Positions 13,758 to 32,310 of a DNA stretch of 64,000 nucleotides are shown piece by piece. The notes beneath the pieces are model-generated. The model saw only the letters and a program-made list of their open reading frames with translations. It had not been told where the DNA came from and did not search any database. Location: NCBI RefSeq assembly GCF_054482595.1, contig NZ_CM137008.1; one strand, given 5' to 3'. Made by a program: the position numbers and the translations under genes. Within the stretch, counting starts at the first letter, position 1. Each line of letters opens with the position of its first letter.

Positions 13758-14123
13758 ATGATTGATGTCTTAGGACCGGAGAAACGCAGACGGCGTACTA
13801 CACAGGAAAAGATCGCTATTGTTCAGCAGAGTTTTGAACCGGGAATGACAGTCTCCCTTGTTGCCCGGCAACACGGTGTGGCAGCCAGCCAGTTATTTCT
13901 CTGGCGCAAGCAATACCAGGAGGGAAGTCTTACTGCTGTGGCCGCAGGAGAACAGGTCGTTCCTGCCTCTGAACTTGCTGCCGCCATGAAGCAGATTAAA
14001 GAACTCCAGCGCCTGCTCGGCAAAAAAACGATGGAAAATGAACTCCTTAAAGAAGCCGTTGAATACGGGCGTGCAAAAAAGTGGATAGCGCACGCGCCCT
14101 TATTGCCCGGGGATGGGGAGTAA
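13758..14123 (+). CDS. insC: IS2 transposase OrfA (InsC)
   Basis: 121 aa [26 protein letters not shown]..., matches IS2 InsC. Confidence 0.9.
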
Positions 14124-14986
14124 GCTTAGTCAGCCGTTGTCTCCGGGTGTCGCGTGCGCAGTTGCACGTCATTCTCAGACGAACCGATGACTGGAAAGAT
14201 GGTCGCCGCAGCCGTCACTCAGATGATACGGATGTGCTTCTCCGTATACACCATGTTATCGGAGAGCTGCCCACATATGGTTATCGTCGGGTATGGGCGC
14301 TGCTTCGCAGACAGGCCGAACTTGATGGTATGCCTGCGATCAATGCCAAACGTATTTACCGGATCATGCGCCAGAATGCGCTGTTGCTTGAGCGAAAACC
14401 CGCTGTACCGCCATCGAAACGGGCACATACCGGCAGAGTGGCTGTGAAAGAAAGTAATCAGCGATGGTGCTCTGACGGGTTCGAGTTCCGCTGTGATAAC
14501 GGAGAAAAACTGCGAGTCACGTTCGCGCTGGACTGCTGTGACCGTGAGGCACTGCACTGGGCGGTCACTACGGGCGGCTTCAACAGTGAAACAGTACAGG
14601 ACGTCATGCTGGGAGCGGTGGAACGCCGTTTCGGCAACGAGCTTCCGGCGTCTCCAGTAGAGTGGCTGACGGATAATGGTTCATGCTACCGGGCTAATGA
14701 AACACGGCAGTTTGCCCGGATGTTGGGGCTTGAACCGAAGAACACGGCGGTGCGGAGTCCGGAGAGTAACGGCATAGCAGAGAGCTTCGTGAAAACGATA
14801 AAGCGTGACTACATCAGTGTCATGCCCAAACCAGACGGGTTAACGGCAGCAAAGAACCTTGCAGAGGCATTCGAGCATTATAACGAATGGCATCCGCATA
14901 GTGCACTGGGTTATCGCTCGCCACGGGAATATCTACGGCAGCAAGCCAGTAATGGGTTAAGTGATAACAGGTGTCTGGAAATATAG
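14081..14986 (+). CDS. insD: IS2 transposase OrfB (InsD)
   Basis: 301 aa ORF overlapping insC as in IS2. Confidence 0.9.
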
Positions 14987-15193
14987 GGGCAAATCCACAA
15001 AAGAAGAAGAGCATCTAATTGATATAAAAGAGATTCTATCTGATATAAAAATCACATTAGATGAAATAAAATACACAACAGATCTAATTGAACAGTATAA
15101 AATACCAACCCCAAACGAGAGAAAAGCAATAGATCAATATCGTATTGACTTAGAAATCGACGAAATGCTAAGCAAAAGAAAAGACTAAAAACA

Positions 15194-15220
15194 CCCGGCC
15201 TCAGCGCCGGGTTTTCTTTT
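15194..15220 (+). terminator. Rho-independent terminator after the rex-locus gene
   Basis: CCCGGC-loop-GCCGGG hairpin followed by TTTTCTTTT. Confidence 0.5.
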
Positions 15221-15385
15221 CCTGCCGTTCACCACCCAATCACCCATCATCATCATAGACAAGCATCAAGCCAAAGGTAACACCTTCACCCCGCACGCAA
15301 GCCCTCAAACACCAATCAATCAGCAACATTTACAAAAATAAAATACATTTGTTATCCATCACTTATAACTTATTTACCACAAAAT

Positions 15386-15424
15386 ATAAGTTAGGTTATT
15401 GACCACACCTATAACCTAAGTTAT
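15386..15424. promoter_or_regulatory. OL operator region: two ATAAC/G-N4-GTTAT sites flanking a putative pL -35 TTGACC
   Basis: Sites at 15386-15399 and 15411-15424, same half-sites as OR. Confidence 0.45.
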
Positions 15425-15472
15425 CTTTAAGCCATCAGCAGGACGCTGGTAGCCAAACGGAACAGATTGGCA

Positions 15473-15515
15473 GGCTCTTTAACATTGATGGGATTGTCCC
15501 GCCGAAATGCGGGAA
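15473..15515 (+). promoter_or_regulatory. nutL-like site (boxA GCTCTTTAACA plus boxB hairpin)
   Basis: boxA-like sequence at 15473-15484 and TCCCGC-N6-GCGGGA hairpin at 15497-15515 upstream of N. Confidence 0.45.
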
Positions 15516-15708
15516 CCAAAGAGTAGTTGGCTTTGGGATTGGATGAATGAGCAGGCTGATGCTCGACCAATGTATAAACAGCGCTCATGGCAAGCAGTAA
15601 CCAATCTGCGCCTCAAGACAGCGTCACTGGTAGTGCGGGCGCTCTAACCAGTAAGCCGGAATTCAGCACCGGCCATCCAATCACCAAAGTCAATCATCGG
15701 AGGTCAAC

Positions 15709-16008
15709 ATGACAGTAGTCATTACATATCTGGCTGACGATAACGCCAGAAATCGCCGCAGAGCACGCAGACAGACTCAACGTGAACAGGCAATGCAAGA
15801 GCAGCGACTGGCGCGAAAAATTGCGCTAAAGCTCTCTGGTTGCGTCAGAGCAGATAAAGCAGCATCACTCGGAAGCCTTCGCTGCAAGAAGGCAGAAGAA
15901 GTCGAGCGTAAACAGAACCGTATTTACTACCGCAAGCCACGCAGTGAAATGGGTGTGACTTGTGTTGGTCGCCAGAAAATGAAATTAGGCAGCAAACCAC
16001 TTATTTGA
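15709..16008 (+). CDS. N: Antiterminator N-like
   Basis: 99 aa; arginine-rich N-terminus NARNRRRARRQ; C-terminus matches recalled lambda N (R.YY.KP....G.TC.GRQK.K..S.PLI). Confidence 0.7.
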   Translation: MTVVITYLADDNARNRRRARRQTQREQAMQEQRLARKIALKLSGCVRADKAASLGSLRCKKAEEVERKQNRIYYRKPRSEMGVTCVGRQKMKLGSKPLI

Positions 16009-16016
16009 GGTGAGAT

Positions 16017-16439
16017 GTGGAAGAACAAGCAAACAAGATTCTCGTAGAACTACTGCAAAAAGCCAGCAATGGAATAGACGCGGCTGTTTCATTTAGCCAG
16101 GCACAGATTCCTGATGTTGTTCATCAGTTGCTAATATGGAGTTTTGTCCATAGCGCACTTTTCCAAGTGACTGGGTTGTTGCTTTTAATTGCAGCAATGA
16201 AACTTCCTAGTTTTGCAAGAACGGCAAGAAATAATGGCGAGAGATGGACGTCTTTCGATGGATGTCCAAATGATGGATATTTTATATCTTCGTTTTATTA
16301 CGATATATGCACTGTATTTGCTCCTGTATTTGGCCCAATTATTGGCGTTTTAATTATTGCCTTCAATTTCGAATGGTTGAAGATTTGGCTTGCACCTAAG
16401 TTATTCCTAATTGAATATGCAGCGTCATTGGTTAAGTAA
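16017..16439 (+). CDS. Predicted multi-pass membrane protein in the early-left operon (SieB position)
   Basis: 140 aa, GTG start after SD GAGGTGAG; several hydrophobic segments; family not recognised. Confidence 0.4.
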   Translation: MEEQANKILVELLQKASNGIDAAVSFSQAQIPDVVHQLLIWSFVHSALFQVTGLLLLIAAMKLPSFARTARNNGERWTSFDGCPNDGYFISSFYYDICTVFAPVFGPIIGVLIIAFNFEWLKIWLAPKLFLIEYAASLVK

Positions 16440-16490
16440 TTTCAGGCCGAATATTCGGCCTTTATTTTTAGCATAAACAACAGAGGTGAA

Positions 16491-16625
16491 TATGAACGCA
16501 GTTGAATTTACAAAATGGATGGCAGAGCAAGATATCACAGGAGCCGACGAAAAGGCTGTGTACTACATGGCTATGCTATGGATTCACAAAGCAAAAGAGG
16601 CTGCAAATGCTCTTGGAGGTGAGTG
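16491..16625 (+). CDS. Small hypothetical phage protein
   Basis: 44-codon ORF found by translation (MNAVEFTKWMAEQDITGADEKAVYYMAMLWIHKAKEAANALGGE). Confidence 0.25.
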
Positions 16626-16826
16626 ATGTGCGAGTTTTATGAAGCAGATATCAAACGCCCAGAAATGGCAAGTGATGCGACATTACGTGATTACTTCGCA
16701 GCAAAGGCTATGCAAGCAATGATTAGCAATCCATCGATTATCGATAATGATTCTGATGGAGATGTTAATTATGCAGCAAGCGCTGCATATAAGTTTGCAG
16801 ACGCAATGCTCAAAGCTCGCGAATAA
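16623..16826 (+). CDS. Hypothetical phage protein
   Basis: 67 aa ORF, acidic, no recognised family. Confidence 0.3.
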   Translation: MMCEFYEADIKRPEMASDATLRDYFAAKAMQAMISNPSIIDNDSDGDVNYAASAAYKFADAMLKARE

Positions 16827-16961
16827 GCACTGTGTATTCATTCCAACGAGTGAATACACGGAGCAATGTCGCTCGTAACTAAACAGGAGCCGACTTGTTC
16901 TGATTGTTGGAAATCTTCTTTGCCCTCCAGTGTGAGGGCAATTTTTTTTGATGGAGGATAT

Positions 16962-17930
16962 ATGAGTGAAGTAACAGATTTAGTTGTTATTGAAAAAGCA
17001 AATGCAATGACTGTATTTCAGTCTGCCGACCAGATTGAAGAAATTCTCCAAAAGGTTGAACGTGAAGTTATGTCATTTGTGCCTGATATCACAACGGCAA
17101 AGGGCAGAAAGGAGATCGCTTCTCTGGCGTATAAAGTTGCGCAGACGAAAACATATCTCGATGGTCTTGGCAAAGACCTTGTTGCTGAACTGAAGGAAAT
17201 TCCAAAGCTAATTGATGCCAACCGCAAGACAGTGCGCGATCGCCTTGATGAACTGAAAGCCAAGGCGCGCCAGCCTCTTACTGATTATGAGGAAGAACAG
17301 GCGCGGATTAAAGCCGAAGAAGAAGCTAAGGCAGCAGCTGAAGCTCTCGCAAAGCAAATTGAGTCTGACCATGAAATAGCGATTTTGATGGATCGCGAAT
17401 TTGACCGCCAAAGAGAAGAGGCAAGACTCAAAGCGGAGCAGGAAAAGCGAGAGCATGAAGAACGATTAAAAAGAGAAGCTGAAGAGAAAGCCAGAGCTGA
17501 AGCCGAAGCAAAGGCAAAAGCCGAAATTGAAGCAGCAGCAAGACGAGAAGCAGAGGCTAAGGCCGCAGCGGAACGTGCAGAGCGTGAACGCATTGAAGCC
17601 GAGCAACGAGCACAGCGCGAAGCAAAAGAGGCAGCAGAACGAGCTGAAAGAGAAAAGCATGCGGCAATTGAAGCAGAACGCCGTAAAGCACAGGAGGAGG
17701 CAGAACGAATCCGGCGCGAGGCTGAAGCAAAAGAGCAAGCCAGAATAGCAGAAGAAAAAAGAATCAAGGACGAAGAAGAGCGTAGAGCAAAGGATAAAGC
17801 TCACCGGAAAGAAGTAAATAACAAAATACTTGCTGACCTTATCAAGGTTGGCGCATCAGAAGATGTTGCTAAAAATATCATAACAGCCATCGTAAAAGGC
17901 GAAGTATTCGCAACAAAAATAACCTACTAA
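16962..17930 (+). CDS. Coiled-coil protein with long Ala/Glu/Lys/Arg-rich region
   Basis: Start set at Met after SD GGAGGA; central ~150 aa EAEAKAKAEIEAAARREAEAK-type repeats. Confidence 0.4.
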   Translation: MSEVTDLVVIEKANAMTVFQSADQIEEILQKVEREVMSFVPDITTAKGRKEIASLAYKVAQTKTYLDGLGKDLVAELKEIPKLIDANRKTVRDRLDELKAKARQPLTDYEEEQARIKAEEEAKAAAEALAKQIESDHEIAILMDREFDRQREEARLKAEQEKREHEERLKREAEEKARAEAEAKAKAEIEAAARREAEAKAAAERAERERIEAEQRAQREAKEAAERAEREKHAAIEAERRKAQEEAERIRREAEAKEQARIAEEKRIKDEEERRAKDKAHRKEVNNKILADLIKVGASEDVAKNIITAIVKGEVFATKITY

Positions 17931-17954
17931 TAAAACCAACATAAGGAACCACCC

Positions 17955-18086
17955 ATGATTTACGCAATCGCGGGAGGCGCTCGCATGGGTGCCTTCCAAT
18001 TAAATGAATCTTTACTTGAACGAATCACCCGTAAATTACGTGACGGATGGAAAAGAGTTGAGGTCTTATTATGCGCAATGAAATAG
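17955..18086 (+). CDS. cIII: CIII-like protease inhibitor
   Basis: 43 aa; ESLLERITRKLRDGWKR matches recalled lambda CIII core. Confidence 0.7.
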   Translation: MIYAIAGGARMGAFQLNESLLERITRKLRDGWKRVEVLLCAMK

Positions 18087-18223
18087 CCATTAATCACCAG
18101 ATGCTTCGTGCGGCACAAAACAAAGCAGTAATAGCCAGATTTATTGGTGATTCCAAAATGTGGCTTGAAGCAAATAAAGCGATGAAATCAGCTATCAACC
18201 TTCCGTGGTATCGCAGGAAATGA
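18071..18223 (+). CDS. kil: Kil-like host division inhibitor
   Basis: 50 aa; QNKAVIARFIGDSKMWLEANKAMKS resembles recalled lambda Kil; position after cIII. Confidence 0.55.
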   Translation: MRNEIAINHQMLRAAQNKAVIARFIGDSKMWLEANKAMKSAINLPWYRRK

Positions 18224-18378
18224 GTTTTACAGATAACTGGTCAGACGAAGAATTCATTCGTCAGATGAAAGATTTAATCGGTAACGAAGGAGATATTCAT
18301 GTCACTTGCAACCACAGTGAAGGAGAGCAAGTTACAGAGACGCATGTACACGCAGAAAGCTCTCTGGTATCGCCATAA
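18220..18378 (+). CDS. Small hypothetical phage protein
   Basis: 52-codon ORF by translation; no family recognised. Confidence 0.2.
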   Translation: MSFTDNWSDEEFIRQMKDLIGNEGDIHVTCNHSEGEQVTETHVHAESSLVSP

Positions 18379-18477
18379 TGGCGACCGCGAAGGAATGCGG
18401 GTATGCCTTAATTTGTCCCGAGTCGAAGTATTAAATCAGCGTTATTTCCTTGGGCCATGTCCATTCTGAGGTGAATT

Positions 18478-19185
18478 ATGGATTTGAATAAATTCGATGA
18501 GCCATTCAGCCCTGAAGATATCGAATGGCGAATACAGCAAAGCGGTAAAACACGCGATGGCAAAGTGTGGGCTATGGTGCTGGCTTATGTCACGAACCGG
18601 GCAATCATGAAACGCCTGGACGATGTTTGCGGCAAAGCAGGATGGCGCAATGAATACCGCGATATTCCCAACAACGGCGGCGTTGAATGCGGCATATCAA
18701 TAAAGATTGATTCCGAATGGGTAACCAAATGGGATGCTGCTGAAAACACGCAGGTAGAAGCCGTCAAAGGTGGTCGTTCCGGTGCAATGAAGCGCGCTGC
18801 CGTTCAGTGGGGAATCGGTAGGTATCTGTATAACCTTGAGGAAGGTTTCGCACAAACATCTCTCGATAAAAAGCAGGGGTGGCACAGGGCAAAACTCAAG
18901 GATGGAACAGGATTTTACTGGCTCCCTCCATCGCTGCCGGGATGGGCAATCCCAGCATCAGATAACAAACCATCACCAGAAAATACCAACCAGAAATCTC
19001 CATCGGTTAACTGCGAACAAATCCTGAAAGACTTCAGCGATTATGCGTCAACAGAAACTGACAAGAAAAAACTCATCGAGCGTTATCAGCGTGACTGGCA
19101 ATTAATGGCTGGCAACGAGGAGGCGCAGGCTAAATGCGTTCAGGTAATGAACATCAGAGTTAACGAGCTAAAACAGGCGGCATAA
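18478..19185 (+). CDS. Putative single-strand annealing protein (Rad52-like)
   Basis: 235 aa immediately upstream of ssb in the position occupied by bet in lambda; family call tentative. Confidence 0.45.
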   Translation: MDLNKFDEPFSPEDIEWRIQQSGKTRDGKVWAMVLAYVTNRAIMKRLDDVCGKAGWRNEYRDIPNNGGVECGISIKIDSEWVTKWDAAENTQVEAVKGGRSGAMKRAAVQWGIGRYLYNLEEGFAQTSLDKKQGWHRAKLKDGTGFYWLPPSLPGWAIPASDNKPSPENTNQKSPSVNCEQILKDFSDYASTETDKKKLIERYQRDWQLMAGNEEAQAKCVQVMNIRVNELKQAA

Positions 19186-19659
19186 ATGGCAAGTAGAGGC
19201 GTAAATAAGGTGATCATTATTGGTCGCCTTGGGCATGATCCAGAAATCAGATATTCACCATCAGGAACGGCATTTGCAAACCTTACAGTTGCTACGTCAG
19301 AACAATGGCGTGATAAGAAAACTGGAGAGCAAAAGGAGCAGACGGAGTGGCACCGCGTGGTAATGAGCGGGAAACTGGCAGAAATTGCCAGCGAATATCT
19401 GCGAAAAGGCTCTGAGGTTTATCTTGAAGGAAAATTGCGGACAAGAAAATGGCAGGATCAAAGCGGACAGGATAGGTTCACTACCGAAGTCATCGTGGGC
19501 GTTGGTGGAACCATGCAAATGCTTGGTGGCAAGCAAGGAGGCAATGAACAGTCTTCACCTCAGCGAAATAACGGTCAGCAACAAAGACAGCAATCTCAGC
19601 AGCAGGGGAATCACAGCGAACCACCTATGAACTTCGACGATTCGGATATTCCGTTCTAG
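19186..19659 (+). CDS. ssb: Single-stranded DNA-binding protein
   Basis: 157 aa; OB-fold region nearly identical to E. coli SSB; Gln/Gly-rich tail ending DIPF. Confidence 0.9.
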
Positions 19660-19668
19660 GAGCTGAAT

Positions 19669-20148
19669 ATGAAAATCTGCTCAAGATGCCATCAACAGAA
19701 GGAAGAAAGGGACTTTCAAATCAGAAGAGCATCCAGAGATGGATTAACTGCCGCTTGCCGGGCTTGCCTGGCTGAATATGACAAAGAGCGCGCGGGATTG
19801 CCACATCGAGTATCAGCAAGGAGAAAATATCAATCATCGGAACGCGGAAGAGAACGGTGTAACGCAGCCAAAAAGCGGTTCATTCAGAGCAACCCATGGA
19901 AAAGAAAAGCCCACATCATCGTGGGTAATTTTTTGCGCGACGGTAAGCTAATCCGACCACCACAATGTGAGTGCTGCGGATCAGAATGTAAACCACAGTC
20001 GCACCACTGCGACTACAGCAAACCAACCGATGTGATGTGGCTCTGCAAGTCATGTCATGTCGAGTGGCACAAACATAACAAACCTATCTACCCAGACGAG
20101 GAACCAGTAACTCTCCCCTTCCCTCGTCACGCTATTCACGCAATTTAA
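19669..20148 (+). CDS. Zn-ribbon/HNH-type nuclease-like protein
   Basis: CSRCH and CRAC N-terminal motifs; C-terminal SHHCDYSKP...WLCKSCHVEWH resembles the HNH His-Me finger. Confidence 0.45.
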   Translation: MKICSRCHQQKEERDFQIRRASRDGLTAACRACLAEYDKERAGLPHRVSARRKYQSSERGRERCNAAKKRFIQSNPWKRKAHIIVGNFLRDGKLIRPPQCECCGSECKPQSHHCDYSKPTDVMWLCKSCHVEWHKHNKPIYPDEEPVTLPFPRHAIHAI

Positions 20149-20156
20149 GGACTTAC

Positions 20157-20705
20157 ATGAATCACTTGATGGTTGACCTTGAAACAATGGGCAACGGGCC
20201 ATACGCGCCAGTTATTTCTATTGGGGCGGTATTCTTTGATCCGAATACCGGAGAAACAGGAGAAGAGTTCTCGGTAAATATCTCGCTTGAATCATCAATG
20301 CGATATCGAGCGCGTCCTGACGCTTCAACGATTTTATGGTGGCTGGAACAGAGTGAAGAAGCCAGAAAATCGCTAACCAGCAACACTCAGGAGCTTTCAA
20401 CGGCTCTTTCATGGTTATCTGAATTCATCATAAAGAACGCTAACCACAAATTCGTTCAGGTTTGGGGGAATGGAGCATCATTTGACTGCGTTATTCTCCG
20501 AAACAGTTATTCGCTGACAGGGCAGCCAGTTCCGTGGCAGTGGTGGAATGACCGCGACGTAAGAACAATCGTCGAACTTGGGAAGGTAATAGGATTCGAC
20601 CCTAAGCGAGATATGCCATTCAAAGGAACTCGCCACAACGCTCTTGATGATGCCATTCACCAAGCCAAATACGTTTCAGCGATCTGGAAAAAGTTAGCTA
20701 AATAA
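20157..20705 (+). CDS. DEDDh-type 3'-5' exonuclease
   Basis: MVDLETMG (Exo I) and HNALDDA (Exo III) motifs. Confidence 0.65.
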   Translation: MNHLMVDLETMGNGPYAPVISIGAVFFDPNTGETGEEFSVNISLESSMRYRARPDASTILWWLEQSEEARKSLTSNTQELSTALSWLSEFIIKNANHKFVQVWGNGASFDCVILRNSYSLTGQPVPWQWWNDRDVRTIVELGKVIGFDPKRDMPFKGTRHNALDDAIHQAKYVSAIWKKLAK

Positions 20706-20721
20706 TCAACAGGAGAAAACC

Positions 20722-21018
20722 ATGCCAGCGCCTCTGTATGGTGCGGATGACCCGCGCCGCTGTTCCGGCAATTCCGTATCGGAGGTGCTGGATAAATTCA
20801 GAAAAAACTACGATCGGATAATGTCGCTACCTCAGGAAACGAAAGAGGAAAAGGAATTTCGCCATTGTATATGGCTTGCAGAGAAAGAAGAACGCGAGCG
20901 AATTTACCAGACATCAATCCGACCATTCCGCAAAGCCACATATACCCACTTCCCTGAATATATCGACCCGCGCCTGCGTAATTACCGCTCACGCTATGGC
21001 GCTATCAGTAATGACTGA
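20722..21018 (+). CDS. Hypothetical phage protein
   Basis: 98 aa ORF, no recognised family. Confidence 0.3.
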
Positions 21019-21171
21019 GGAATTTACCATGAGAGGACTTGCATACAATCCCGGCATTCTTCCGGCAGAAATGATTATTCGCCAACGCGTAAAGCCAATG
21101 CCATCGAGAGAGGGATTACTTAAGCGAAACTCGTTTCCATCAGTGAATCAAAACAAATATCTGAATGCGAT

Positions 21172-21576
21172 GTGGCGGAGTGGGAAGAAATGAAACAAAT
21201 GTCACTAATTGAGATGGATGGTTTTCTGAAAGGTAAATGCATCCCACGAGATTTAAAGGTTAACGAAACAAACGCTGAATATCTGGTGCGTAAATTTGCT
21301 GAAGCGGAGGCCAAGTGCGCGGCGCTGGCAGCGGATAATGCGGCGCTTAAACAGTCGGAGAAGGAATTTAATAACTTCTGTCGTCAGGAGTACTACGGTT
21401 GGGAGGACAACTTCACGGAAACCCCAGCCACCGATGCTTTCCTGGCTGAAGTACGGGCGCAGGGTGTGGAGATGGCTATGGAGCATATGCAGTCGAGCGG
21501 TTCGTTAACATTTGGAGATTGCTACATATCACTTAACGAGTTCGCCGCAGAGCTTCGCAAAGGAGGTAACCAGTGA
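21172..21576 (+). CDS. Hypothetical phage protein (start uncertain)
   Basis: 134 aa ORF; internal Mets at codons 7 and 10 are alternative starts. Confidence 0.3.
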
Positions 21577-21872
21577 GTGTATATCTCATTGATAAACGCC
21601 GACGTGGGCAACAAATACCACCTGTAGGAATTCCGAATCACACATGGTTTTGCGTACTTGATATCGATGGCATGGATAAGTTTGTTGACACTCGTCATTA
21701 CTGCGATACCGCAACAGCTACTCCGGCGAAAGCAAAGAAAATGGCTGCTCTGATAGAAAACTGGACTCCACCTGATGGGTGGTGCAATGGGAATGATCGA
21801 GATTGGCATGAAAAAATGAAGGGCTATATCTGCGATTTCTTACGTAAATGCAACGGCTTCAGGGTGATGTGA
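21573..21872 (+). CDS. Hypothetical phage protein
   Basis: 99 aa ORF overlapping neighbours by 4 bp, typical operon packing. Confidence 0.3.
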   Translation: MSVYLIDKRRRGQQIPPVGIPNHTWFCVLDIDGMDKFVDTRHYCDTATATPAKAKKMAALIENWTPPDGWCNGNDRDWHEKMKGYICDFLRKCNGFRVM

Positions 21873-21873
21873 C

Positions 21874-22554
21874 ATGAACAAGATTGACTATCAGGCACTG
21901 CGTGAGGCAGCAGAAAAAGCAACGTGTGGTGCGTGGTCGCTCGAATATGGAGAGGAGAGATTTGATGCTGGTGATGCGCTAATTCATCGTGAAGTTGTTG
22001 GATATCTTCCCATTTGCAGAATTGAAGGAGCGCATCCTGAAAGCGGTTTCGATGAAGATTTCCAAATGGAACAGCAGGCCAATGCTGAATTCATCGCCGC
22101 AGCCAATCCGGCTACCGTCTTGGCGCTGCTTGATGAACTGGAAGCCGCAGAGAAGCGTATCGCTGAATTGGAGTCACTGACTGTACCACAGTTACCGCAG
22201 CAAGCGGTGCCGGATGAAATGCCGGAGCCAGATACCGCGAGAATGTTCTTTACCGATGCAGTTGTGGCAATAGCTAAGGTTCAAGGCTGGAACGCCTGCC
22301 GCGCTGCCATGCTTCATAGTGCCGAACCTGTAAGCCAGGCTTACAAGTTGAACGCGCTGGATGGCAACTCTCCGGTAACTCCGGATGGTTGGGTTATGGT
22401 GCCGAAGGAGTTAACGCCGGAAATGATGAGAGCCGTTCAGATTAGAAGTGAGCTTGGAGGGTATGCCACTTCCAATCTATCTGGTGCATACAATATGTTT
22501 TCTGAGTTCTGGAATGTTGCTGTCTCAGCTGCGCCTAAGGTGGATGATTTATGA
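21874..22554 (+). CDS. Ead/Ea22-like protein
   Basis: 226 aa; N-terminal ALREAAEKAT.GAW...AAANPATVLALLDELEAAE resembles the Ead/Ea22 family. Confidence 0.45.
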   Translation: MNKIDYQALREAAEKATCGAWSLEYGEERFDAGDALIHREVVGYLPICRIEGAHPESGFDEDFQMEQQANAEFIAAANPATVLALLDELEAAEKRIAELESLTVPQLPQQAVPDEMPEPDTARMFFTDAVVAIAKVQGWNACRAAMLHSAEPVSQAYKLNALDGNSPVTPDGWVMVPKELTPEMMRAVQIRSELGGYATSNLSGAYNMFSEFWNVAVSAAPKVDDL

Positions 22555-22853
22555 ATCTCTATCGCTGCCCATTCTGTGGTTCCACTGTGCTTAACATCGG
22601 ATACTCATTCAGTATCAGAGGGAAAATGCGCTATGTGTCATGCAAATGTGGTGCCCAAGGACCAGAAAAACGAACTAGATCTGAAGCGATTTCTTCATGG
22701 AATAGTCGAATGAAAGTATGGGTTTATGATCCAGAAACCATATTAAACGCTGAAGAGCGCAGGAGAACGGAAGTCTATATTCATAACCTTAATGAAGATG
22801 GATTTACACCAGTGCTTGTAAAGGCTACTCCGCAGGAGGTTAACCATGGCTAA
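22551..22853 (+). CDS. Lar-like restriction alleviation family protein
   Basis: N-terminal YRCPFCGS zinc-ribbon typical of the Lar family; 100 aa. Confidence 0.45.
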   Translation: MNLYRCPFCGSTVLNIGYSFSIRGKMRYVSCKCGAQGPEKRTRSEAISSWNSRMKVWVYDPETILNAEERRRTEVYIHNLNEDGFTPVLVKATPQEVNHG

Positions 22854-22940
22854 CCTGCAACTTGACGTCAAAGGTGAATAACAATCCTCGCATTCGCGGG
22901 GATTTCTTTTATCTGAACTCGCTACGGCGAGTTTTATTTT

Positions 22941-23252
22941 ATGGAGATGATTATGACCTGTTCAACATTCAACCCTCTAACGTTACAGAAATACCAGCCA
23001 GACCCTGAAGATTTATGCTCACTGTGTGGCGGAAATCATGGTAAAGCCGCCATGATCGAATGTAAGGACAAAATCCACATTTGCCTTAATTGCGTTGATG
23101 TCCTCGTTGATATCAAAAATGAGAGAGAAGATAAAAAGCGTAGCGAGGCTGTTAGCGCCTTAGATTCATGGATGCGAGATGGGTATAGTGCCGCGCAAAT
23201 TTATGACTTAGCCATTTCAAAAGGCGAAATACCAGGAGTACGCATCGAATAA
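22941..23252 (+). CDS. Hypothetical Cys-rich (zinc-finger-like) protein
   Basis: 103 aa with CSLCGG and CLNC motifs. Confidence 0.3.
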   Translation: MEMIMTCSTFNPLTLQKYQPDPEDLCSLCGGNHGKAAMIECKDKIHICLNCVDVLVDIKNEREDKKRSEAVSALDSWMRDGYSAAQIYDLAISKGEIPGVRIE

Positions 23253-23292
23253 GACATAACCGATATTCGAATTGAAGAACTGAAAGAACACC

Positions 23293-23318
23293 AAGCCGCC
23301 TGATGGCGGTTTTTTCTT
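23293..23318 (+). terminator. Rho-independent terminator upstream of xis
   Basis: GCCGCC-TGAT-GGCGGT hairpin followed by TTTTTT. Confidence 0.4.
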
Positions 23319-23342
23319 GCGTGTAATTGCGGAGACTTTGCG

Positions 23343-23561
23343 ATGTACTTGACACTTCAGGAGTGGAACGCACGCCAGCGACGCCCAAGAAGCCTTGAAA
23401 CAGTTCGTCGATGGGTACGCGAGTGCAGGATATTCCCTCCTCCGGTTAAGGATGGAAGAGAGTATCTGTTCCACGAATCAGCGGTAAAGGTTGACTTAAA
23501 TCGACCAGTAACAGGTAGCCTTTTGAAGAGGATCAGAAATGGGAAGAAGGCGAAGTCATGA
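23343..23561 (+). CDS. xis: Excisionase (lambda Xis)
   Basis: 72 aa MYLTLQEWNARQRRPRSLETVRRWVRE..., matches recalled lambda Xis. Confidence 0.9.
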   Translation: MYLTLQEWNARQRRPRSLETVRRWVRECRIFPPPVKDGREYLFHESAVKVDLNRPVTGSLLKRIRNGKKAKS

Positions 23562-24609
23562 GCGCCGGGATTTACCCCCTAACCTTTATATAAGAAACAA
23601 TGGATATTACTGCTACAGGGACCCAAGGACGGGTAAAGAGTTTGGATTAGGCAGAGACAGGCGAATCGCAATCACTGAAGCCATACAGGCCAACATTGAG
23701 TTATTTTCAGGACACAAACACAAGCCTCTGACAGCGAGAATCAACAGTGATAATTCCGTTACGTTACATTCATGGCTTGATCGCTACGAAAAAATCCTGG
23801 CCAGCAGAGGAATCAAGCAGAAGACACTCATAAATTACATGAGCAAAATTAAAGCAATACGGGGGGGGCTGCCTGATGCTCCACTTGAAGACATCACCAC
23901 AAAAGAAATTGCGGCAATGCTCAATGGATACATAGACGAGGGCAAGGCGGCGTCAGCCAAGTTAATCAGATCAACACTGAGCGATGCATTCCGAGAGGCA
24001 ATAGCTGAAGGCCATATAACAACAAACCCTGTCGCTGCCACTCGCGCAGCAAAATCAGAGGTAAGGAGATCAAGACTTACGGCTGACGAATACCTGAAAA
24101 TTTATCAAGCAGCAGAATCATCACCATGTTGGCTCAGACTTGCAATGGAACTGGCTGTTGTTACCGGGCAACGAGTTGGTGATTTATGCGAAATGAAGTG
24201 GTCTGATATCGTAGATGGATATCTTTATGTCGAGCAAAGCAAAACAGGCGTAAAAATTGCCATCCCAACAACATTGCATGTTGATGCTCTCGGGATATCA
24301 ATGAAGGAAACACTCGATAAATGCAAAGAGATTCTTGGCGGAGAAACCATAATTGCATCTACTCGTCGTGAACCGCTTTCATCCGGCACAGTATCAAGGT
24401 ATTTTATGCGCGCACGAAAAGCATCAGGTCTTTCCTTCGAAGGGGATCCGCCTACCTTTCACGAGTTGCGCAGTTTGTCTGCAAGACTCTATGAGAAGCA
24501 GATAAGCGATAAGTTTGCTCAACATCTTCTCGGGCATAAGTCGGACACCATGGCATCACAGTATCGTGATGACAGAGGCAGGGAGTGGGACAAAATTGAA
24601 ATCAAATAA
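23539..24609 (+). CDS. int: Tyrosine integrase (lambda Int)
   Basis: 356 aa; matches recalled lambda Int; overlaps xis as in lambda. Confidence 0.95.
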   Translation: MGRRRSHERRDLPPNLYIRNNGYYCYRDPRTGKEFGLGRDRRIAITEAIQANIELFSGHKHKPLTARINSDNSVTLHSWLDRYEKILASRGIKQKTLINYMSKIKAIRGGLPDAPLEDITTKEIAAMLNGYIDEGKAASAKLIRSTLSDAFREAIAEGHITTNPVAATRAAKSEVRRSRLTADEYLKIYQAAESSPCWLRLAMELAVVTGQRVGDLCEMKWSDIVDGYLYVEQSKTGVKIAIPTTLHVDALGISMKETLDKCKEILGGETIIASTRREPLSSGTVSRYFMRARKASGLSFEGDPPTFHELRSLSARLYEKQISDKFAQHLLGHKSDTMASQYRDDRGREWDKIEIK

Positions 24610-24663
24610 TGATTTTATTTTGACTGATAGTGACCTGTTCGTTGCAACAAATTGATAAGCAAT

Positions 24664-26027: not shown

Positions 26028-26039
26028 GAGCTATTAACT

Positions 26040-26165
<126 letters not shown>

Positions 26166-26167
26166 TT

Positions 26168-28429
26168 TTACATCTGACGGTTTTTATTGAAGTTAATCAA
26201 ACTACCCGCCTTGATAATCTCGCGCTCTTCAGCAGTCAGACTTTCCATATAGAGCGTAATTTCCGTTACCGGCGCATCTTCATGGATCACATAACCTTTA
26301 AACGTCGTACCCGGATTATCCAGCGCCGCTTTAATGCCAGGGATGTAAATGTAATCCCCCACTTCAAAGGTTGGCACTTCCGCCATCTGCAGAGGTAACA
26401 TCCCCCAGTTGATGACGTTAGAACGGTAGCGTTTAGTCGCGTACTCCTCGGCAATATTCGCCAGACCGCCAATCACACGCTGACAACTCGCCGCCTGTTC
26501 ACGCGCAGAACCATCGCCTGGTTTCACCGCATAGACCATGCTGCCAATTTCAGTTTGCAGCGGATCAATATGCTCCTGACCAGCAATCTGCTTAATGCGC
26601 GCAAACACCTCTGTCAGCTCGCTGACATTCCCCGCCAGACGCTGATTTTCCAGCTCAGCAGTCGCTTTACTTCTGCCAACATAACCTGGATCGCGGCGTG
26701 ACAGGGTAAACTCCGCCAGACCAATCGGATTTGAACGATAAGAAGAGGTTTCACCGGAAGGAATCAGTTCGTCGGTGGTGGTCACTTCGTCGAGGATCTT
26801 CGAGCACACTTTGAGGACGATATTGTCAGTCAGCGCCCCCAATTCCGGCCAGTCTTTAATGTTCGGTCCGTAAATCAGCGGTTGCTGAGTTGCCCCTTTC
26901 ACAATGCCCTGATAAACACGGTTTTTATACGGCGTTACATCGAAGGCGTACTCCGGCACGTTGTCCCAGCAATCAAGTTCGCTGGCAGAGGTTAAATAGC
27001 CACCGTTTGCCGCAGTCGCAGCGATAGAACGAGCGTCCATCAACGCCACCGCTGACATCTGCCCATTAGCTGGCTTAGAGCCTTCGCGGTTCGGGAAGTT
27101 ACGCGTGGTGTGGCGAATACTCAAACCGTTGTTGATTGGCGTATCGCCCGCGCCAAAGCATGGGCCACAGAACGCGGTTCTGATAATTGCGCCTGCGCCA
27201 ATCAAATCTGCTACCACACCTTTTTTGGCTAAATCCATAAACACCGGCTGTGATGACGGGTAAACCGCCAGCGAGAAGGTGTCATTGCCACAGGATTGAC
27301 CGCGCAGTGCATTCGCCGCCGCGATGACGTTTTCGTAGTTACCGCCAGAACAGCCCGCGATAATCCCCTGCTGCACTTTCAGGCGACCATTTTCCACTTT
27401 ATCCAGCAGCGAGAGTTTGGCCTTACCGTGCGCCACGCGTTCGGACTCAATTTCAATCTCACGCAGAATGTCGGTCAGGTTCTGGTTCAGTGTGTCGATT
27501 TCATACACGTTGCTCGGGTGGAACGGCAGCGCAATCATTGGTTTGATGGCACTTAAATCAACGCTGATGCAGCCATCGTAGTACGCCATCGGTTGAGGGT
27601 TAAGCTGGCAGTAATCCTGGCCGCGACCGTGCAGCGTCAGCCAGTTATGGACTTCTTCATCGGTTTGCCAGACAGAACTTAAACAGGTCGTTTCAGTGGT
27701 CATAACGTCAACGCTGTTACGGAAATCGGTAGAGAGCGCAGCAACACCGGGACCTACGAATTCCATCACTTTGTTTTTGACGTAGCCGTTTTTGAACACG
27801 GCACCGATGATAGCCAGCGCCACATCCTGCGGCCCCACATACGGCGCTGGTTTTCCGGTCAGATGCACCGCAACAACTCCCGGATAGTCGATATCCCAGG
27901 TGTCATTAAGCAGCTGTTTTACCAACTCACCGCCGCCCTCACCGACTGCCATTGTCCCTAATGCACCGTAACGGGTGTGGCTGTCTGACCCGAGGATCAT
28001 TTTGCCCCCGCCTGCCATCATCTCACGCATATATTGATGGATGACCGCAATATGCGGAGGCACAAAAATACCGCCATAACGCTGAGCTGCCGATAAACCA
28101 AAAACATGGTCATCACCGTTAATGGTGCCGCCGACGGCGCAGAGTGAGTTATGGCAGTTGGTCAGCACATACGGCAGCGGGAAACGTTCCATTCCGGACG
28201 CTTTAGCGGTCTGTACAATACCAACAAAGGTAATATCGTGAGAGGCTAATGAATCAAACTTAATTTTAAGTTTATCCATATTTCCGGACGTATTATGAGA
28301 ATAGAGAATAGACCAGGCAATAGTGCCTTTTTTGGCTTCTTCTTTTTTAATTTCGCCGGTGAAATGTTCTTCGGCAATTATTTCGTTATTACTGGCGAGA
28401 AACACGCCTTTTTCAGATAACTTGATCAT
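26168..28429 (-). CDS. ybhJ: Aconitase-family hydratase YbhJ
   Basis: Aconitase signature GSDSHT and Fe-S ligand cysteines; start set at Met MIKLSEK. Confidence 0.8.
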
Positions 28430-28611
28430 CAAATGCTCCAGACATCTGCGCACCGTGAAGTGCGCAGCAAGAAAATAAATGGATATACTCTAAATAATTC
28501 GAGTTGCAGGAAGGCGACAAGCGAGTGAATCCCCAGGAGCTTACATAAGTAAGTGACTGGGGTGAGCGAACGCAGACGCAGCACATGCAACTTGAAGTAT
28601 GACGAGTATAT

Positions 28612-30045
28612 TTACAGCATGTTCCAGCCGATCAGCATATTCCACCACCACACTCCGAGGGTGATATGCACCAGGAAGGTTAATATCGTCAGTACCGCAC
28701 CGACCAACCACCAGGATTTAATATCGTTGTAACCCACGCCAAAGATGACCGGACCTGCCGCGCCGCCATAGTGAGTAACCATGCCGCCATAGGAGTTGGA
28801 GAACAACAGTGCCAGCGCGGTTAACATTAACGGTGCGCCGGAGACGTTCGCCAGCATGGCAAATACCGGTAACATAGCAACGATATAGGCACTACCGGAA
28901 GCGAAGAAATAACGCACGATGATGCTGAGGAAAATAATAACGAAGAAAGCAACGTTACCGTGACCATCAAATGCCAGGTTATTTTTAAAGACTTCAGCTA
29001 ACCATTCGAAAAATTTAACTTTCGATAATAAGGAGCTTAAGCCGATAATACCGCCGTACCAGATTAAGGTATTCCAGCCGCCTTTATTTTTAACCACGTC
29101 TTCCCAGGTAACGATACCCAGCAGCAGCATAGTCGCCATAACAACGATTGCCACGGTGGATTCATCAACCCCCAGAGACTTACTGAAAATCCAGCCCAGC
29201 AGCGCCAGCACAAAGACACCGAGCAGCATTTTTTCGCGGATTTTCATCGGTCCCAGTTCGGCAAGGCCCGCTTTAGCGATGGTTTTGTTATCCACCTTCT
29301 TAATTTCTGGTGGATACATGGTGTAAATCACCAGCGGGGTGACCAGCAGCATAATGATGCCCGGCAATCCGGCGGCCAGCGCCCATCCACCCCAGCTAAT
29401 TTGCAGGTGCAGAATGTCGTTGATCATTTTCAGCGCCAGAATGTTCCCCGCCATTGCGGTAAAGAACATATAGCTGGTGGTTTTGGTGACCATGTAAATG
29501 GACATCATCAGGTAATGTCCGACACGACGCGGACTTTTTTCCGGTTCGGACCCCAAAGCCACCGCCACGCTGTTGATGATCGGTAACACAATGCCGCCCG
29601 CACGCGCGGTGTTAGACGGTGTTGCCGGAGCCAGTACCAGATCGAGGAAAACCGTAACGTAACCCAGACCCAGCGTGGTGTTACCGATTTTACCAATCAG
29701 CAGATAGGCAATACGTTTACCTAAACCGGTGGTCACAAATGCGGCGCTTAAGGTAAACGCCGAGAACACCAGCCAGGTAGTACCTGAAGAGTAACCGCTT
29801 AATACGGCGGTGGTTTTAAACGCACCGTCGGATAAGTTACCGACCACCACCATGGAGGCAGCAACGGCAATTAACAGTACGACAGGTTCCGGGAAAGGCT
29901 TGATAACCAGCCCCACAATGGCCGCCAGGTAAATACCAAAAAGCACCCACGCCAGTTCGCTTAATCCTGCCGGAGCTGGCATAAAGCCAATAATACATGG
30001 GATCGCTAATATCAGAATTAGCTTCCATAACGATTTCTTATTCAT
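28612..30045 (-). CDS. ybhI: DASS-family anion transporter YbhI
   Basis: 477 aa polytopic membrane protein, recognised as YbhI. Confidence 0.8.
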   Translation of the reverse strand: MNKKSLWKLILILAIPCIIGFMPAPAGLSELAWVLFGIYLAAIVGLVIKPFPEPVVLLIAVAASMVVVGNLSDGAFKTTAVLSGYSSGTTWLVFSAFTLSAAFVTTGLGKRIAYLLIGKIGNTTLGLGYVTVFLDLVLAPATPSNTARAGGIVLPIINSVAVALGSEPEKSPRRVGHYLMMSIYMVTKTTSYMFFTAMAGNILALKMINDILHLQISWGGWALAAGLPGIIMLLVTPLVIYTMYPPEIKKVDNKTIAKAGLAELGPMKIREKMLLGVFVLALLGWIFSKSLGVDESTVAIVVMATMLLLGIVTWEDVVKNKGGWNTLIWYGGIIGLSSLLSKVKFFEWLAEVFKNNLAFDGHGNVAFFVIIFLSIIVRYFFASGSAYIVAMLPVFAMLANVSGAPLMLTALALLFSNSYGGMVTHYGGAAGPVIFGVGYNDIKSWWLVGAVLTILTFLVHITLGVWWWNMLIGWNML

Positions 30046-30120
30046 TTAAAATCCTGTTCTTTCTGTATGACTCATACAGAAGTCCTTTATTGATTGTCCT
30101 TATCCTGACAACGAATCTTT

Positions 30121-31173
30121 TCAGGGAAGATAAACTTCACCGGAAAATATTTTTCTGGTCGTCCGAATAACAGATGCGCGTAACGTCGTGGCATCCTGAC
30201 CTTCATTACTTAAATGAACGTCGAGCGCACCACTGGGGTGTTCAATATTGATATTGCCATATCCTACAGAAGGGATGATTTGTCGGGTGACGGTGCCTTC
30301 CAATGCACAACTACTGGAAATAGCAATAGCACCGGTTATCGCCAACGCGCGATGGCAAGAATGCGGCATAAAATAACGCACATTAATTGCCCCGCCTTTC
30401 TGCGCTGGAGAAATAAGCACAGGTTTAGGGATAACCATATTACTGACATCACCTAAGCCCATTGCTTTACCCGCTTGTAGACGGATAGATTCAATGCGGG
30501 CTAATAATGCTTTGTCGGCATCCAGTTCCGCCGGTAATTCATAGCCTGTTTTTCCCAGATATTCAGCCGGAATAATGACGACTGGCATCGCCATATCGAT
30601 ACAGGTCACCGGGACATCGTCAAAATAATCAATCTGATTATCAGTCGGGAAAACTTTTCCGGTTTTGGTTCCAGCGGCATTCAGGAAAGTGAGCGCAACC
30701 GGTGCGGCAGTACCCGGTACGCCGTCAATTCTGGCACTACCCTCGTACTCGACAACACCATTTGGCGTTTGCACATCAGCTTCGATGAACGTACCCGTAT
30801 TGACGTTGCGGATACGTACGCGGGTAACTGGCGAAGTCGCTGCAATCAAACCATTTTCAATGGCGAATGCCCCAACGCCAGACAGCATATTGCCGCAGTT
30901 AGGCGTGGTATCGACACGTTGCTCATGGACGATAACTTGAGCAAACAGATAATCAACATCAGCACGCGGATCGCTGGAACGGCTTATAATGGCGACTTTA
31001 CTGGTCAGTGGATTACCGCCGCCAATACCGTCAATTTCCAGATCGTTACCGGAACCCATAATTGCCATCAATATTTTATCGCGCTGCGTTTGATCTTCGG
31101 GTAAATGTTCCGCTAACAGGAACGCGCCCCTCGAGGTTCCACCTCGCATCATCACGCAGGGTATTTTTTTCAT
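30121..31173 (-). CDS. ybhH: PrpF-family isomerase YbhH
   Basis: 350 aa, PrpF/AcnD-accessory-like fold family. Confidence 0.8.
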   Translation of the reverse strand: MKKIPCVMMRGGTSRGAFLLAEHLPEDQTQRDKILMAIMGSGNDLEIDGIGGGNPLTSKVAIISRSSDPRADVDYLFAQVIVHEQRVDTTPNCGNMLSGVGAFAIENGLIAATSPVTRVRIRNVNTGTFIEADVQTPNGVVEYEGSARIDGVPGTAAPVALTFLNAAGTKTGKVFPTDNQIDYFDDVPVTCIDMAMPVVIIPAEYLGKTGYELPAELDADKALLARIESIRLQAGKAMGLGDVSNMVIPKPVLISPAQKGGAINVRYFMPHSCHRALAITGAIAISSSCALEGTVTRQIIPSVGYGNINIEHPSGALDVHLSNEGQDATTLRASVIRTTRKIFSGEVYLP

Positions 31174-31356
31174 AATAATGCCCTCAATTTAAAAACATAA
31201 CTTATTGCGATATGGTTACATTAAGGGCAAAGCATCTCTAATGACTTTAGCTCAACGATTAATAACATTTTTTCATTAATTTAAGTTGGCTAAATGCAGT
31301 TAAAATTTTTAACGGCCAGCCACCCAAAATCAACGCTTCCATTTTCCGGAGTAATA

Positions 31357-32310
31357 ATGAAGCATGAATTATCAAGTATGAAGGCATTTGTCATACTGGC
31401 AGAGTCCAGTTCATTTAACAATGCCGCTAAATTACTCAACATTACGCAACCTGCATTAACGCGAAGAATAAAAAAGATGGAGGAAGATTTACATATTCAA
31501 CTATTTGAGCGTACAACTCGCAAGGTTACGTTAACAAAAGCAGGAAAAAGGTTGCTCCCGGAGGCGCGGGAATTAATAAAGAAATTCGATGAAACGCTTT
31601 TTAATATTCGTGATATGAATGCTTATCATCGTGGTATGGTGACGTTAGCGTGTATTCCGACCGCAGTATTTTATTTTTTACCGCTGGCAATCGGTAAATT
31701 TAATGAGCTGTATCCCAATATTAAAGTGCGGATTCTGGAACAAGGCACGAATAATTGCATGGAATCGGTGCTATGTAACGAATCAGACTTTGGCATAAAC
31801 ATGAACAACGTCACAAATTCATCCATTGATTTTAGCCCACTGGTCAACGAGCCGTTCGTGCTGGCCTGTCGGCGTGACCATCCATTGGCCAAAAAGCAGC
31901 TTGTAGAATGGCAGGAGTTAGTGGGTTACAAAATGATTGGCGTACGCTCCTCCAGCGGCAACCGACTGTTGATAGAACAACAGCTAGCCGACAAGCCCTG
32001 GAAGCTGGACTGGTTTTACGAAGTGCGTCATCTTTCGACGTCATTAGGACTGGTGGAGGCAGGACTGGGGATTTCAGCGCTTCCTGGTCTGGCAATGCCC
32101 CATGCGCCCTATTCTTCGATTATTGGTATCCCACTGGTGGAACCCGTTATACGTCGGACATTGGGGATTATTCGCCGCAAAGATGCCGTGCTTTCTCCGG
32201 CAGCTGAACGCTTTTTTGCCTTGCTGATTAATTTGTGGACTGACGATAAAGACAATTTGTGGACCAATATCGTCGAACGCCAGAGACATGCGTTACAGGA
32301 GATAGGTTAA
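31357..32310 (+). CDS. ybhD: LysR-type transcriptional regulator YbhD
   Basis: N-terminal HTH (AFVILAESSSFNNAAKLLNITQPALTRRIKKME); start set at Met MKHEL; divergent from ybhH. Confidence 0.8.
   Translation: MKHELSSMKAFVILAESSSFNNAAKLLNITQPALTRRIKKMEEDLHIQLFERTTRKVTLTKAGKRLLPEARELIKKFDETLFNIRDMNAYHRGMVTLACIPTAVFYFLPLAIGKFNELYPNIKVRILEQGTNNCMESVLCNESDFGINMNNVTNSSIDFSPLVNEPFVLACRRDHPLAKKQLVEWQELVGYKMIGVRSSSGNRLLIEQQLADKPWKLDWFYEVRHLSTSLGLVEAGLGISALPGLAMPHAPYSSIIGIPLVEPVIRRTLGIIRRKDAVLSPAAERFFALLINLWTDDKDNLWTNIVERQRHALQEIG

Follow-up and report, generated by a model that had tools for sequence, protein, structure and literature searches.

Dedicated assimilation of trans-aconitate (TAA) has been described in Bacillus velezensis FZB42, where the LysR-type activator gene tarR is divergent from tarA and tarB, encoding a PrpF-superfamily isomerase and an MFS importer, and where TarR acts on short AT-rich palindromes (TTATAA) of the shared promoter region (PMC11495376). 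Two further systems offer parallels. In the 2-methylcitrate cycle of Shewanella oneidensis the aconitase-family Fe-S enzyme AcnD is paired with the isomerase PrpF, which has a Lys/Cys active site, and in the protocatechuate 4,5-cleavage and gallate pathways LigU and GalD use the same fold and catalytic Lys/Cys pair for a 1,3-allylic shift on a tricarboxylate. Here we analyze a 64,000-nucleotide stretch of the Escherichia coli chromosome from the bio–gal region (contig NZ_CM137008.1 of assembly GCF_054482595.1; hereafter, the window), which harbors the regulator gene ybhD divergent from the co-directional genes ybhH, ybhI, and ybhJ. Orthology, conserved residues, and gene context suggest, at a probability of about 0.5, that these four genes form a TAA assimilation module. 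A sequence-only reading of the window had proposed an uptake, isomerization, and hydration module for an aconitate-like tricarboxylate; our analysis supports that proposal, as the genes travel together, and sharpens the substrate to TAA. The gene arrangement given by that reading agrees with the open reading frame (ORF) coordinates and the E. coli gene names, and its family calls (an aconitase-family protein with the GSDSHT signature, a DASS transporter, a PrpF-family isomerase, and a LysR regulator) were borne out by Pfam and NCBIfam matches. The module comprises the following features.

26168-28429, minus strand: ybhJ, 753 aa, an aconitase-family [4Fe-4S] hydratase of a distinct clade (NCBIfam NF008503)
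28483-28606, no strand: ERIC/IRU repeat, filling most of the 182-bp ybhI-ybhJ spacer (28430-28611)
28612-30045, minus strand: ybhI, 477 aa, a DASS-family anion transporter, third paralogue beside CitT and TtdT
30121-31173, minus strand: ybhH, 350 aa, a PrpF-superfamily allylic isomerase, predicted to be an aconitate isomerase
31174-31356, no strand: divergent ybhH/ybhD control region, 183 bp, with blocks conserved in E. albertii, Citrobacter, and Edwardsiella
31258-31280, no strand: candidate YbhD box, the perfect dyad ATTAAT-N11-ATTAAT
31357-32310, plus strand: ybhD, 317 aa, a LysR-type regulator

Comparison of this locus with tar shows that both combine a divergent LysR gene, a PrpF-superfamily isomerase, and an adjacent importer, and that in both the regulator is placed on short AT-rich palindromes of the shared promoter region, TTATAA in Bacillus and two ATTAAT half-sites predicted in E. 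coli. However, there are differences between the systems. TarR is an activator, whereas YbhD is a reported repressor; the importer belongs to the MFS family in tar and to the DASS family in E. coli; and YbhH is merely about 40% identical to TarA (the Shigella value in Table S6, PMC11495376). In addition, tar lacks a dedicated hydratase, whereas the E. coli locus contains YbhJ, from an uncharacterized aconitase clade.

Our literature search found no published substrate for YbhD, YbhH, YbhI, or YbhJ (queries with "ybhI" mostly return the growth medium YBHI), in line with the sequence-only reading, and the K-12 RefSeq names remain "putative isomerase," "putative tricarboxylate transporter," and "putative hydratase." That reading had, however, omitted three published items. 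Deletion of ybhD leads to strong de-repression of ybhH and a ChIP-exo site has been reported, from which the authors conclude merely that YbhD controls the adjacent y-genes (PMC9068703); the accessible part of the RNA-seq supplement of that study lists no ybhJ fold-change. The YbhH crystal structure has been deposited as "putative isomerase YbhH" (6OTV). Finally, a 2024 survey lists TarA homologues of 37–40.5% identity in Shigella, E. fergusonii, Citrobacter, Klebsiella, and Edwardsiella (PMC11495376 Table S6); the Shigella entry should be YbhH, and the ybh genes receive no discussion in the paper.

YbhH matches the Pfam PrpF family across its full length, and its residues K59 and C93 align with K66 and C100 of LigU and are invariant within the YbhH group of proteins. 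In PrpF, K73 and C107 are the catalytic residues (PMC5690661); by our reading of the shared motifs, made without an alignment tool, these would be the equivalents of YbhH K59 and C93. The 2024 TAA assimilation study assayed TarA homologues from isolates growing on TAA, and the Pseudomonas enzymes AI-7-1, AI-16-1, AI-32-1, and AI-41-1 showed 88–101% of the forward aconitate-isomerase activity of TarA, compared with 2–4% for true PrpF proteins from those Pseudomonas strains (PMC11495376 Table S4). The primers of the four active enzymes encode the N terminus QRIPCV..., and those of AI-7-1 and AI-16-1 also the C terminus ...FRRLAG. Exact matches to a 21-nt primer core were found in 29 metagenome loci, and the Pseudomonas gene at locus L099 encodes MQRIPCVL...FRRLAG, with the reverse primer matched at 16 of 18 bases. 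The L099 isomerase is 60% identical to YbhH over the full length, and the LysR protein encoded divergently from it is 51% identical to YbhD. From these values, YbhH and YbhD appear to be orthologous to the Pseudomonas isomerase and its regulator. Among named NCBIfam models, the best relatives of YbhD, itself a LysR-family protein, all fall under cut-off. The island in the 29 loci consists of TcuB, the LysR gene, and, divergent from the latter, the isomerase gene, a DctA-like carrier, a CitMHS citrate symporter, and an OprD-like ORF that was identified by eye and has no NCBIfam match. It shares the tricarboxylate context with the E. coli module, but it has a DctA-like carrier, CitMHS, and a porin in place of a DASS carrier and contains no YbhJ-type hydratase.

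Members of the YbhH group (from E. coli, Klebsiella, a Providencia plasmid, Sinorhizobium, and Pseudomonas) share 56–68% mutual identity, compared with 44–50% to LigU, and 37 positions that are invariant across the group differ in LigU. LigU is the top solved-structure relative of YbhH besides YbhH itself (E = 3e-93), at 45% identity, and YbhH scores 515 bits on the NCBIfam model NF033377 "OMA_tautomer" ("4-oxalomesaconate tautomerase"; cut-off 440). The model does not discriminate, however, as YbhH and the rhizobial, Providencia, and Pseudomonas aconitate-isomerase-type proteins all reach about 515–521 bits, with the L099 protein (521 bits) above YbhH. The model name is thus too broad, and it is probably wrong for the YbhH subgroup. 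The Sinorhizobium locus also bears on the substrate, because there the LysR gene and the isomerase gene have an ABC importer as their sole partner, with neither hydratase nor aldolase. Such a set would be expected if the isomer of the substrate is already a central metabolite, which holds for trans- and cis-aconitate and not for oxalomesaconate, and hence fits an aconitate isomerase. YbhD-like/YbhH-like pairs without a transporter or hydratase occur on small Providencia plasmids (L094 7769-9940 and L127 919-3089).

Klebsiella, Edwardsiella, and Citrobacter also carry the four ybh genes together, but elsewhere on the chromosome. In Klebsiella aerogenes the E. coli gene order is retained, with the LysR gene divergent from the PrpF-family, DASS, and, further on, aconitase-family genes, and the block lies between ileS-ispH-rihC and citS-oadGAB-citAB, about 4 kb from the latter citrate-fermentation genes. 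A second DASS gene (L002 8683-9945) is located there at the place of the E. coli ERIC repeat. Conservation of the block across such differing contexts argues for a shared function.

YbhJ contains the Pfam domains Aconitase (PF00330), with the motif GSDSHT, and Aconitase_C (PF00694), the swivel domain. As in the canonical aconitases (mitochondrial type, PRK07229/TIGR01342, AcnA, and AcnB), the domain order is 1-2-3-4 and the three cysteines, the DSH motif, the arginines, and the serine base are present. As reference we used the catalytic set of mitochondrial aconitase, D100-H101, H147, D165-S166-H167, R447, R452, R580, S642, and R644. YbhJ keeps the cluster cysteines C360, C421, and C424, which are invariant in its clade, as well as H131, D149-S150-H151, R443/R448 (in RNFPNREG), and S641/R643 (in GDGSARE). 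R565, in "YRSN," aligns with the "MRSN" of PRK07229-type aconitases, and we take it, from this motif, to be the counterpart of the third-carboxylate binder R580. The D100 position is Cys92 in YbhJ, within the clade-wide "NCHNSLC," and the rest of the catalytic set is present, with R565 taken for R580. The catalytic and cluster motifs are kept in all members of the clade alignment. Unlike canonical aconitases, YbhJ falls in a separate clade; its best curated aconitate hydratase model, NF005558 (PRK07229), gives 344 bits against a cut-off of 612, it exceeds PRK07229 proteins in length by about 100 residues, and it is covered by a model of its own, NF008503 "hydratase." No characterized member of the clade was found in the literature. 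A ybhJ(L54I) allele, affecting codon 54 (window about 28268-28270), is listed in genotypes of MG1655 laboratory derivatives (PMC13192712); L54 is invariant in the clade alignment.

Scanning one genome per species with a profile recovered at least 598 YbhJ relatives, and for the best 80 of these the neighboring ORFs were called and clustered, and the recurrent ones identified with NCBIfam. These best 80 include proteins of Lachnospiraceae, Megasphaera, Collinsella, Ellagibacter, and Acidaminococcus fermentans that are 65–72% identical to YbhJ. Ten loci have a citrate synthase gene beside the YbhJ homologue (NF010635, 587 bits; cut-off 426), 14 have a gene of the isocitrate dehydrogenase family there, and four have the citrate lyase genes citD-citE-citF. 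Citrate-type contexts account for about 17 of the ~40 non-Collinsella loci, many of the others being short contigs. In gut Firmicutes, homologues of 65–72% identity are thus encoded in operons either together with citrate synthase plus isocitrate dehydrogenase or together with citrate lyase, a tight example being L019 (10001-12304, 12328-13671, and 13675-14676, with gaps of 24 and 4 nt). Elsewhere the context is uninformative: the Collinsella homologues adjoin dnaK, dnaJ, hspR, and clpB, and those of Acidaminococcus adjoin lgt and leuS. Acidaminococcus fermentans, which encodes a close YbhJ homologue, ferments TAA via citrate. Distance-tree analysis groups the enterobacterial YbhJ proteins into a single clade next to these homologues, always with PrpF, DASS, and LysR neighbors.

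The retention of cysteines and catalytic residues, together with the relatives in citrate operons, argues that YbhJ is probably a real aconitase and not a dead paralogue, and the same features suggest that many gut anaerobes probably owe aconitase activity to members of its clade. More tentatively, the clade could be a widespread, genuine Cys-for-Asp aconitase that serves as the citric-acid-branch enzyme of many gut Firmicutes and Actinobacteria and was recruited beside an aconitate isomerase in Enterobacterales. Possible reasons for such a recruitment are tolerance of TAA, an inhibitor of canonical aconitases, or function under anaerobic, citrate-lyase-linked conditions. If this were true, E. 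coli would hold a third, cryptic aconitase and a cryptic TAA fermentation route.

Not all relatives retain the active site. The 39% identical proteins P0148 (L010 10001-12115) and P0156 (L011 1175-3436) are without the DSH motif and the cysteines and were excluded as degenerate; they are probably noncatalytic derivatives of the YbhJ family, and each of their genes precedes a Macro-domain gene. Within E. coli, a rare in-frame allele in some strains (P0034 and similar, 634-648 aa) lacks 119 aa, residues 418-536, which takes out two of the three cluster cysteines and RNFPNREG. Widespread pseudogenization was ruled out, because the deleted segment was found in 5375 complete genomes and a control segment in 5380. 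Two larger gene clusters with YbhJ-type proteins were also observed. A metagenomic locus (L009 2199-12202) combines two YbhJ-type genes and one PRK07229-type gene with a long isocitrate-dehydrogenase-family gene, a PrpF-family gene, and a LysR gene, which suggests a more elaborate tricarboxylate pathway. In a Blautia sp. (L023 4741-12432) a YbhJ-type gene is followed by genes for an RraA/CHA-aldolase-like protein, a GltD-like oxidoreductase, a PRK07229 aconitase, and a long isocitrate-dehydrogenase-family protein, and RraA-like genes are near the YbhJ homologue in L078 as well.

The transporter YbhI scores 554 bits on the DASS model TIGR00785 (cut-off 199). It belongs to the same DASS subfamily as the citrate:succinate antiporter CitT and the tartrate:succinate antiporter TtdT, is of similar length, and like them is encoded beside enzymes for the substrate. 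However, its full-length identity is 33% to CitT and 34% to TtdT, and as it is equally distant from both, neither substrate nor coupling mode can be deduced from the comparison. In the control region, the dyad ATTAAT-N11-ATTAAT is the single match in the window, where 0.02 would be expected by chance, and E. albertii, Citrobacter, and Edwardsiella share its left half-site and spacing. As TarR likewise binds short palindromes rich in A and T, we propose the dyad as a candidate YbhD box. The spacer between ybhI and ybhJ contains an exact match to the ERIC2 primer sequence (28547-28568, once in the window) and a readable ERIC1R primer sequence; a sub-threshold match to Rfam V_AS5 spans 28483-28606.

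These observations are consistent with a mechanism in which YbhD would bind the ATTAAT dyad in the divergent spacer and keep ybhH-ybhI off, with TAA as the presumed inducer. Repression by YbhD is the sole step with experimental backing (PMC9068703). YbhI, as a CitT/TtdT-like DASS carrier, would import the tricarboxylate, possibly by anion exchange. YbhH, by its 60% identity to the Pseudomonas enzymes, would convert trans- to cis-aconitate through a 1,3-allylic proton shift involving Lys59 and Cys93. YbhJ, judging from its catalytic residues and the operon context of its homologues, may then hydrate cis-aconitate to citrate and/or isocitrate, and the products would join the tricarboxylic acid cycle or, anaerobically, the citrate lyase route. 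This suggests that in E. coli isomerization comes first and hydration second, the opposite of the order in AcnD/PrpF.

Other substrates would also be compatible with an allylic isomerase and an aconitase-family hydratase. The module might act on another allylic tricarboxylate such as 4-oxalomesaconate (OMA), with YbhH as a LigU/GalD-type enzyme and YbhJ in the LigJ/GalB role, the product of YbhJ then being 4-carboxy-4-hydroxy-2-oxoadipate. In our view the LigU reaction corresponds to aconitate isomerization on a substrate longer by one carbonyl, and hydration of its product yields an analogue of citrate; YbhH also passes the NF033377 equivalog cut-off, has LigU as its nearest other solved structure, and the Blautia YbhJ homologue adjoins the RraA/CHA-aldolase-like gene. 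We nevertheless regard action on OMA as highly improbable. YbhH is nearer to the Pseudomonas aconitate-isomerase type than to LigU, from which the 37 group-invariant positions separate it, NF033377 scores the Pseudomonas type even higher, and citrate operons host close YbhJ homologues. Moreover, no ring-cleavage dioxygenase, LigJ/GalB, or LigK/GalC gene was found beside the module in E. coli, Klebsiella, Edwardsiella, Sinorhizobium, or Pseudomonas; as the pathway partners are absent and the identity is lower, the module does not conform to a LigU/GalD system. Alternatively, the order of AcnD and PrpF could apply to a different hydroxy-tricarboxylate (a methylcitrate or hydroxycitrate isomer, or a plant acid), so that YbhJ would dehydrate it to an unusual alkene, YbhH would shift the double bond, and AcnA/AcnB would finish. 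This would account for the need of a dedicated hydratase, and it has a precedent in Shewanella (PMC5690661), where as here an aconitase-family gene is adjacent to a PrpF-family gene; the L009 cluster combines LysR, isocitrate-dehydrogenase-family, PrpF-family, and three aconitase-family genes. It is unlikely, however, given that YbhJ reaches 64 bits with TIGR02333 (AcnD; cut-off 1419.85) and YbhH 187 bits with TIGR02334 (PrpF; cut-off 440.55), that no prp genes (prpB/prpC) lie within 8 kb, that the nearest YbhJ relatives are in citrate and not methylcitrate contexts, and that an orthologous pair of regulator and isomerase functions without a dedicated hydratase. Because both scores are far under the cut-offs, the ybh module is not an AcnD/PrpF pair; the analogy drawn in the sequence-only reading is useful for the chemistry but does not extend to membership.

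The module could also be split, such that ybhD-ybhH-ybhI alone constitute the aconitate system and ybhJ is a separately expressed neighbor, coding for a third aconitase or for an Fe-S protein of redox or stress function. The 182-bp ERIC-bearing spacer points in this direction, as do the many YbhJ homologues without a PrpF neighbor and the reported 18-fold increase of ybhJ in algal co-culture, in which ybhH and ybhI are unmentioned. In addition, the published de-repression covers ybhH (and ybhI) with no mention of ybhJ, and a ybhJ mutant is H2O2-sensitive and low in NADPH (PMC4054840). In contrast, ybhJ is downstream of the isomerase and transporter genes in five genera at differing chromosomal sites, Klebsiella has a second transporter gene instead of the ERIC spacer, and the enterobacterial YbhJ clade always has PrpF, DASS, and LysR neighbors. 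ERIC elements usually lie inside transcribed regions, which we also count against a split. On balance we consider a split arrangement fairly unlikely.

Several points weigh against assigning the four genes to TAA assimilation. For all four E. coli proteins, the assigned activities are predictions. To our knowledge, growth of E. coli on TAA is not known. The 182 bp with the ERIC element part ybhI from ybhJ, and co-regulation of ybhJ with ybhH-ybhI is undocumented in the literature. The Cys of YbhJ sits where every canonical aconitase has the Asp of the Asp-His dyad, and mutants lacking acnA and acnB stay glutamate auxotrophs, so YbhJ is no laboratory substitute for these enzymes; ybhJ may simply be repressed under laboratory conditions. 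In Pseudomonas and rhizobia, the corresponding systems do without a hydratase of the YbhJ type, so necessity does not account for the role of YbhJ in the module. The Pseudomonas loci are tied to the assayed AI enzymes via primers alone, not via deposited full sequences. YbhJ has been termed a "catalytically inactive paralog" of aconitase (PMC4054840), and the sole ybhD phenotype reported is a growth effect of the deletion with L-malate (PMC9068703). Finally, the Providencia PrpF-family protein AI-79 was inactive (PMC11495376). The AI-79 construct seems to start at a conserved internal Met, and neither of the two Providencia plasmid genes contains its primer sequence; the negative assay is therefore not attributable to a YbhH-type gene.

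The region matches many E. coli chromosomes at 100% identity, with identical gene names. Of 5426 complete E. coli genomes, 5315 carry at least 80% of it and about 5375–5380 carry internal segments of ybhJ. The dN/dS values against E. albertii are 0.02–0.04 in each of ybhD, ybhH, ybhI, and ybhJ, equal to that of the housekeeping neighbor pgl. The four genes are core genes under strong purifying selection. As to gene boundaries, the ybhJ ORF is open up to a GTG at 28453, yet the ATG at 28429 is the start in homologues and in RefSeq, and the ybhD ORF is open as far as 31294. The GC content of the region gave no clear signal of recent transfer and an Rfam scan gave no match above gathering score; promoter-like sites were fewer than in shuffles (5 vs. 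9.4), and terminator-like sites (11 vs. 7.5 in shuffles) were not distinctive. A sub-threshold match to the Rfam antisense family "Ysr283" lies within ybhI (29329-29580). One further repeat feature adjoins the module.

26030-26165, no strand: REP-like elements in the convergent ybhJ/ybhC spacer, with sub-threshold Rfam naRNA4 (REP-derived) matches at 26030-26074 and 26096-26165

Directly left of ybhC, the window also contains a lambdoid prophage of the Sf6/P22/IME10 type (14000-24650), with a 98% match to Shigella phage Sf6 across 57% of the query. A lambda-like integrase ORF (23539-24609, plus strand) forms its right end, and its position is that of the classical lambda attachment site in the bio/gal interval.

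With the assignment proposed here, four unassigned core genes of the best-studied bacterium would gain a concrete and cheaply testable function. TAA is plentiful in grasses, maize, and sugar cane, and its reduction in the rumen yields tricarballylate, a compound linked to grass tetany; a TAA route in E. coli and Klebsiella, if true, would be relevant to gut ecology. The findings also indicate that the database label "4-oxalomesaconate tautomerase" is over-broad for a whole protein subgroup. As TAA production is being carried out in E. coli (PMC12492653), a native system for TAA uptake and re-assimilation would be a relevant knock-out target. Beyond this organism, YbhJ points to a large, little-studied aconitase clade of gut anaerobes.

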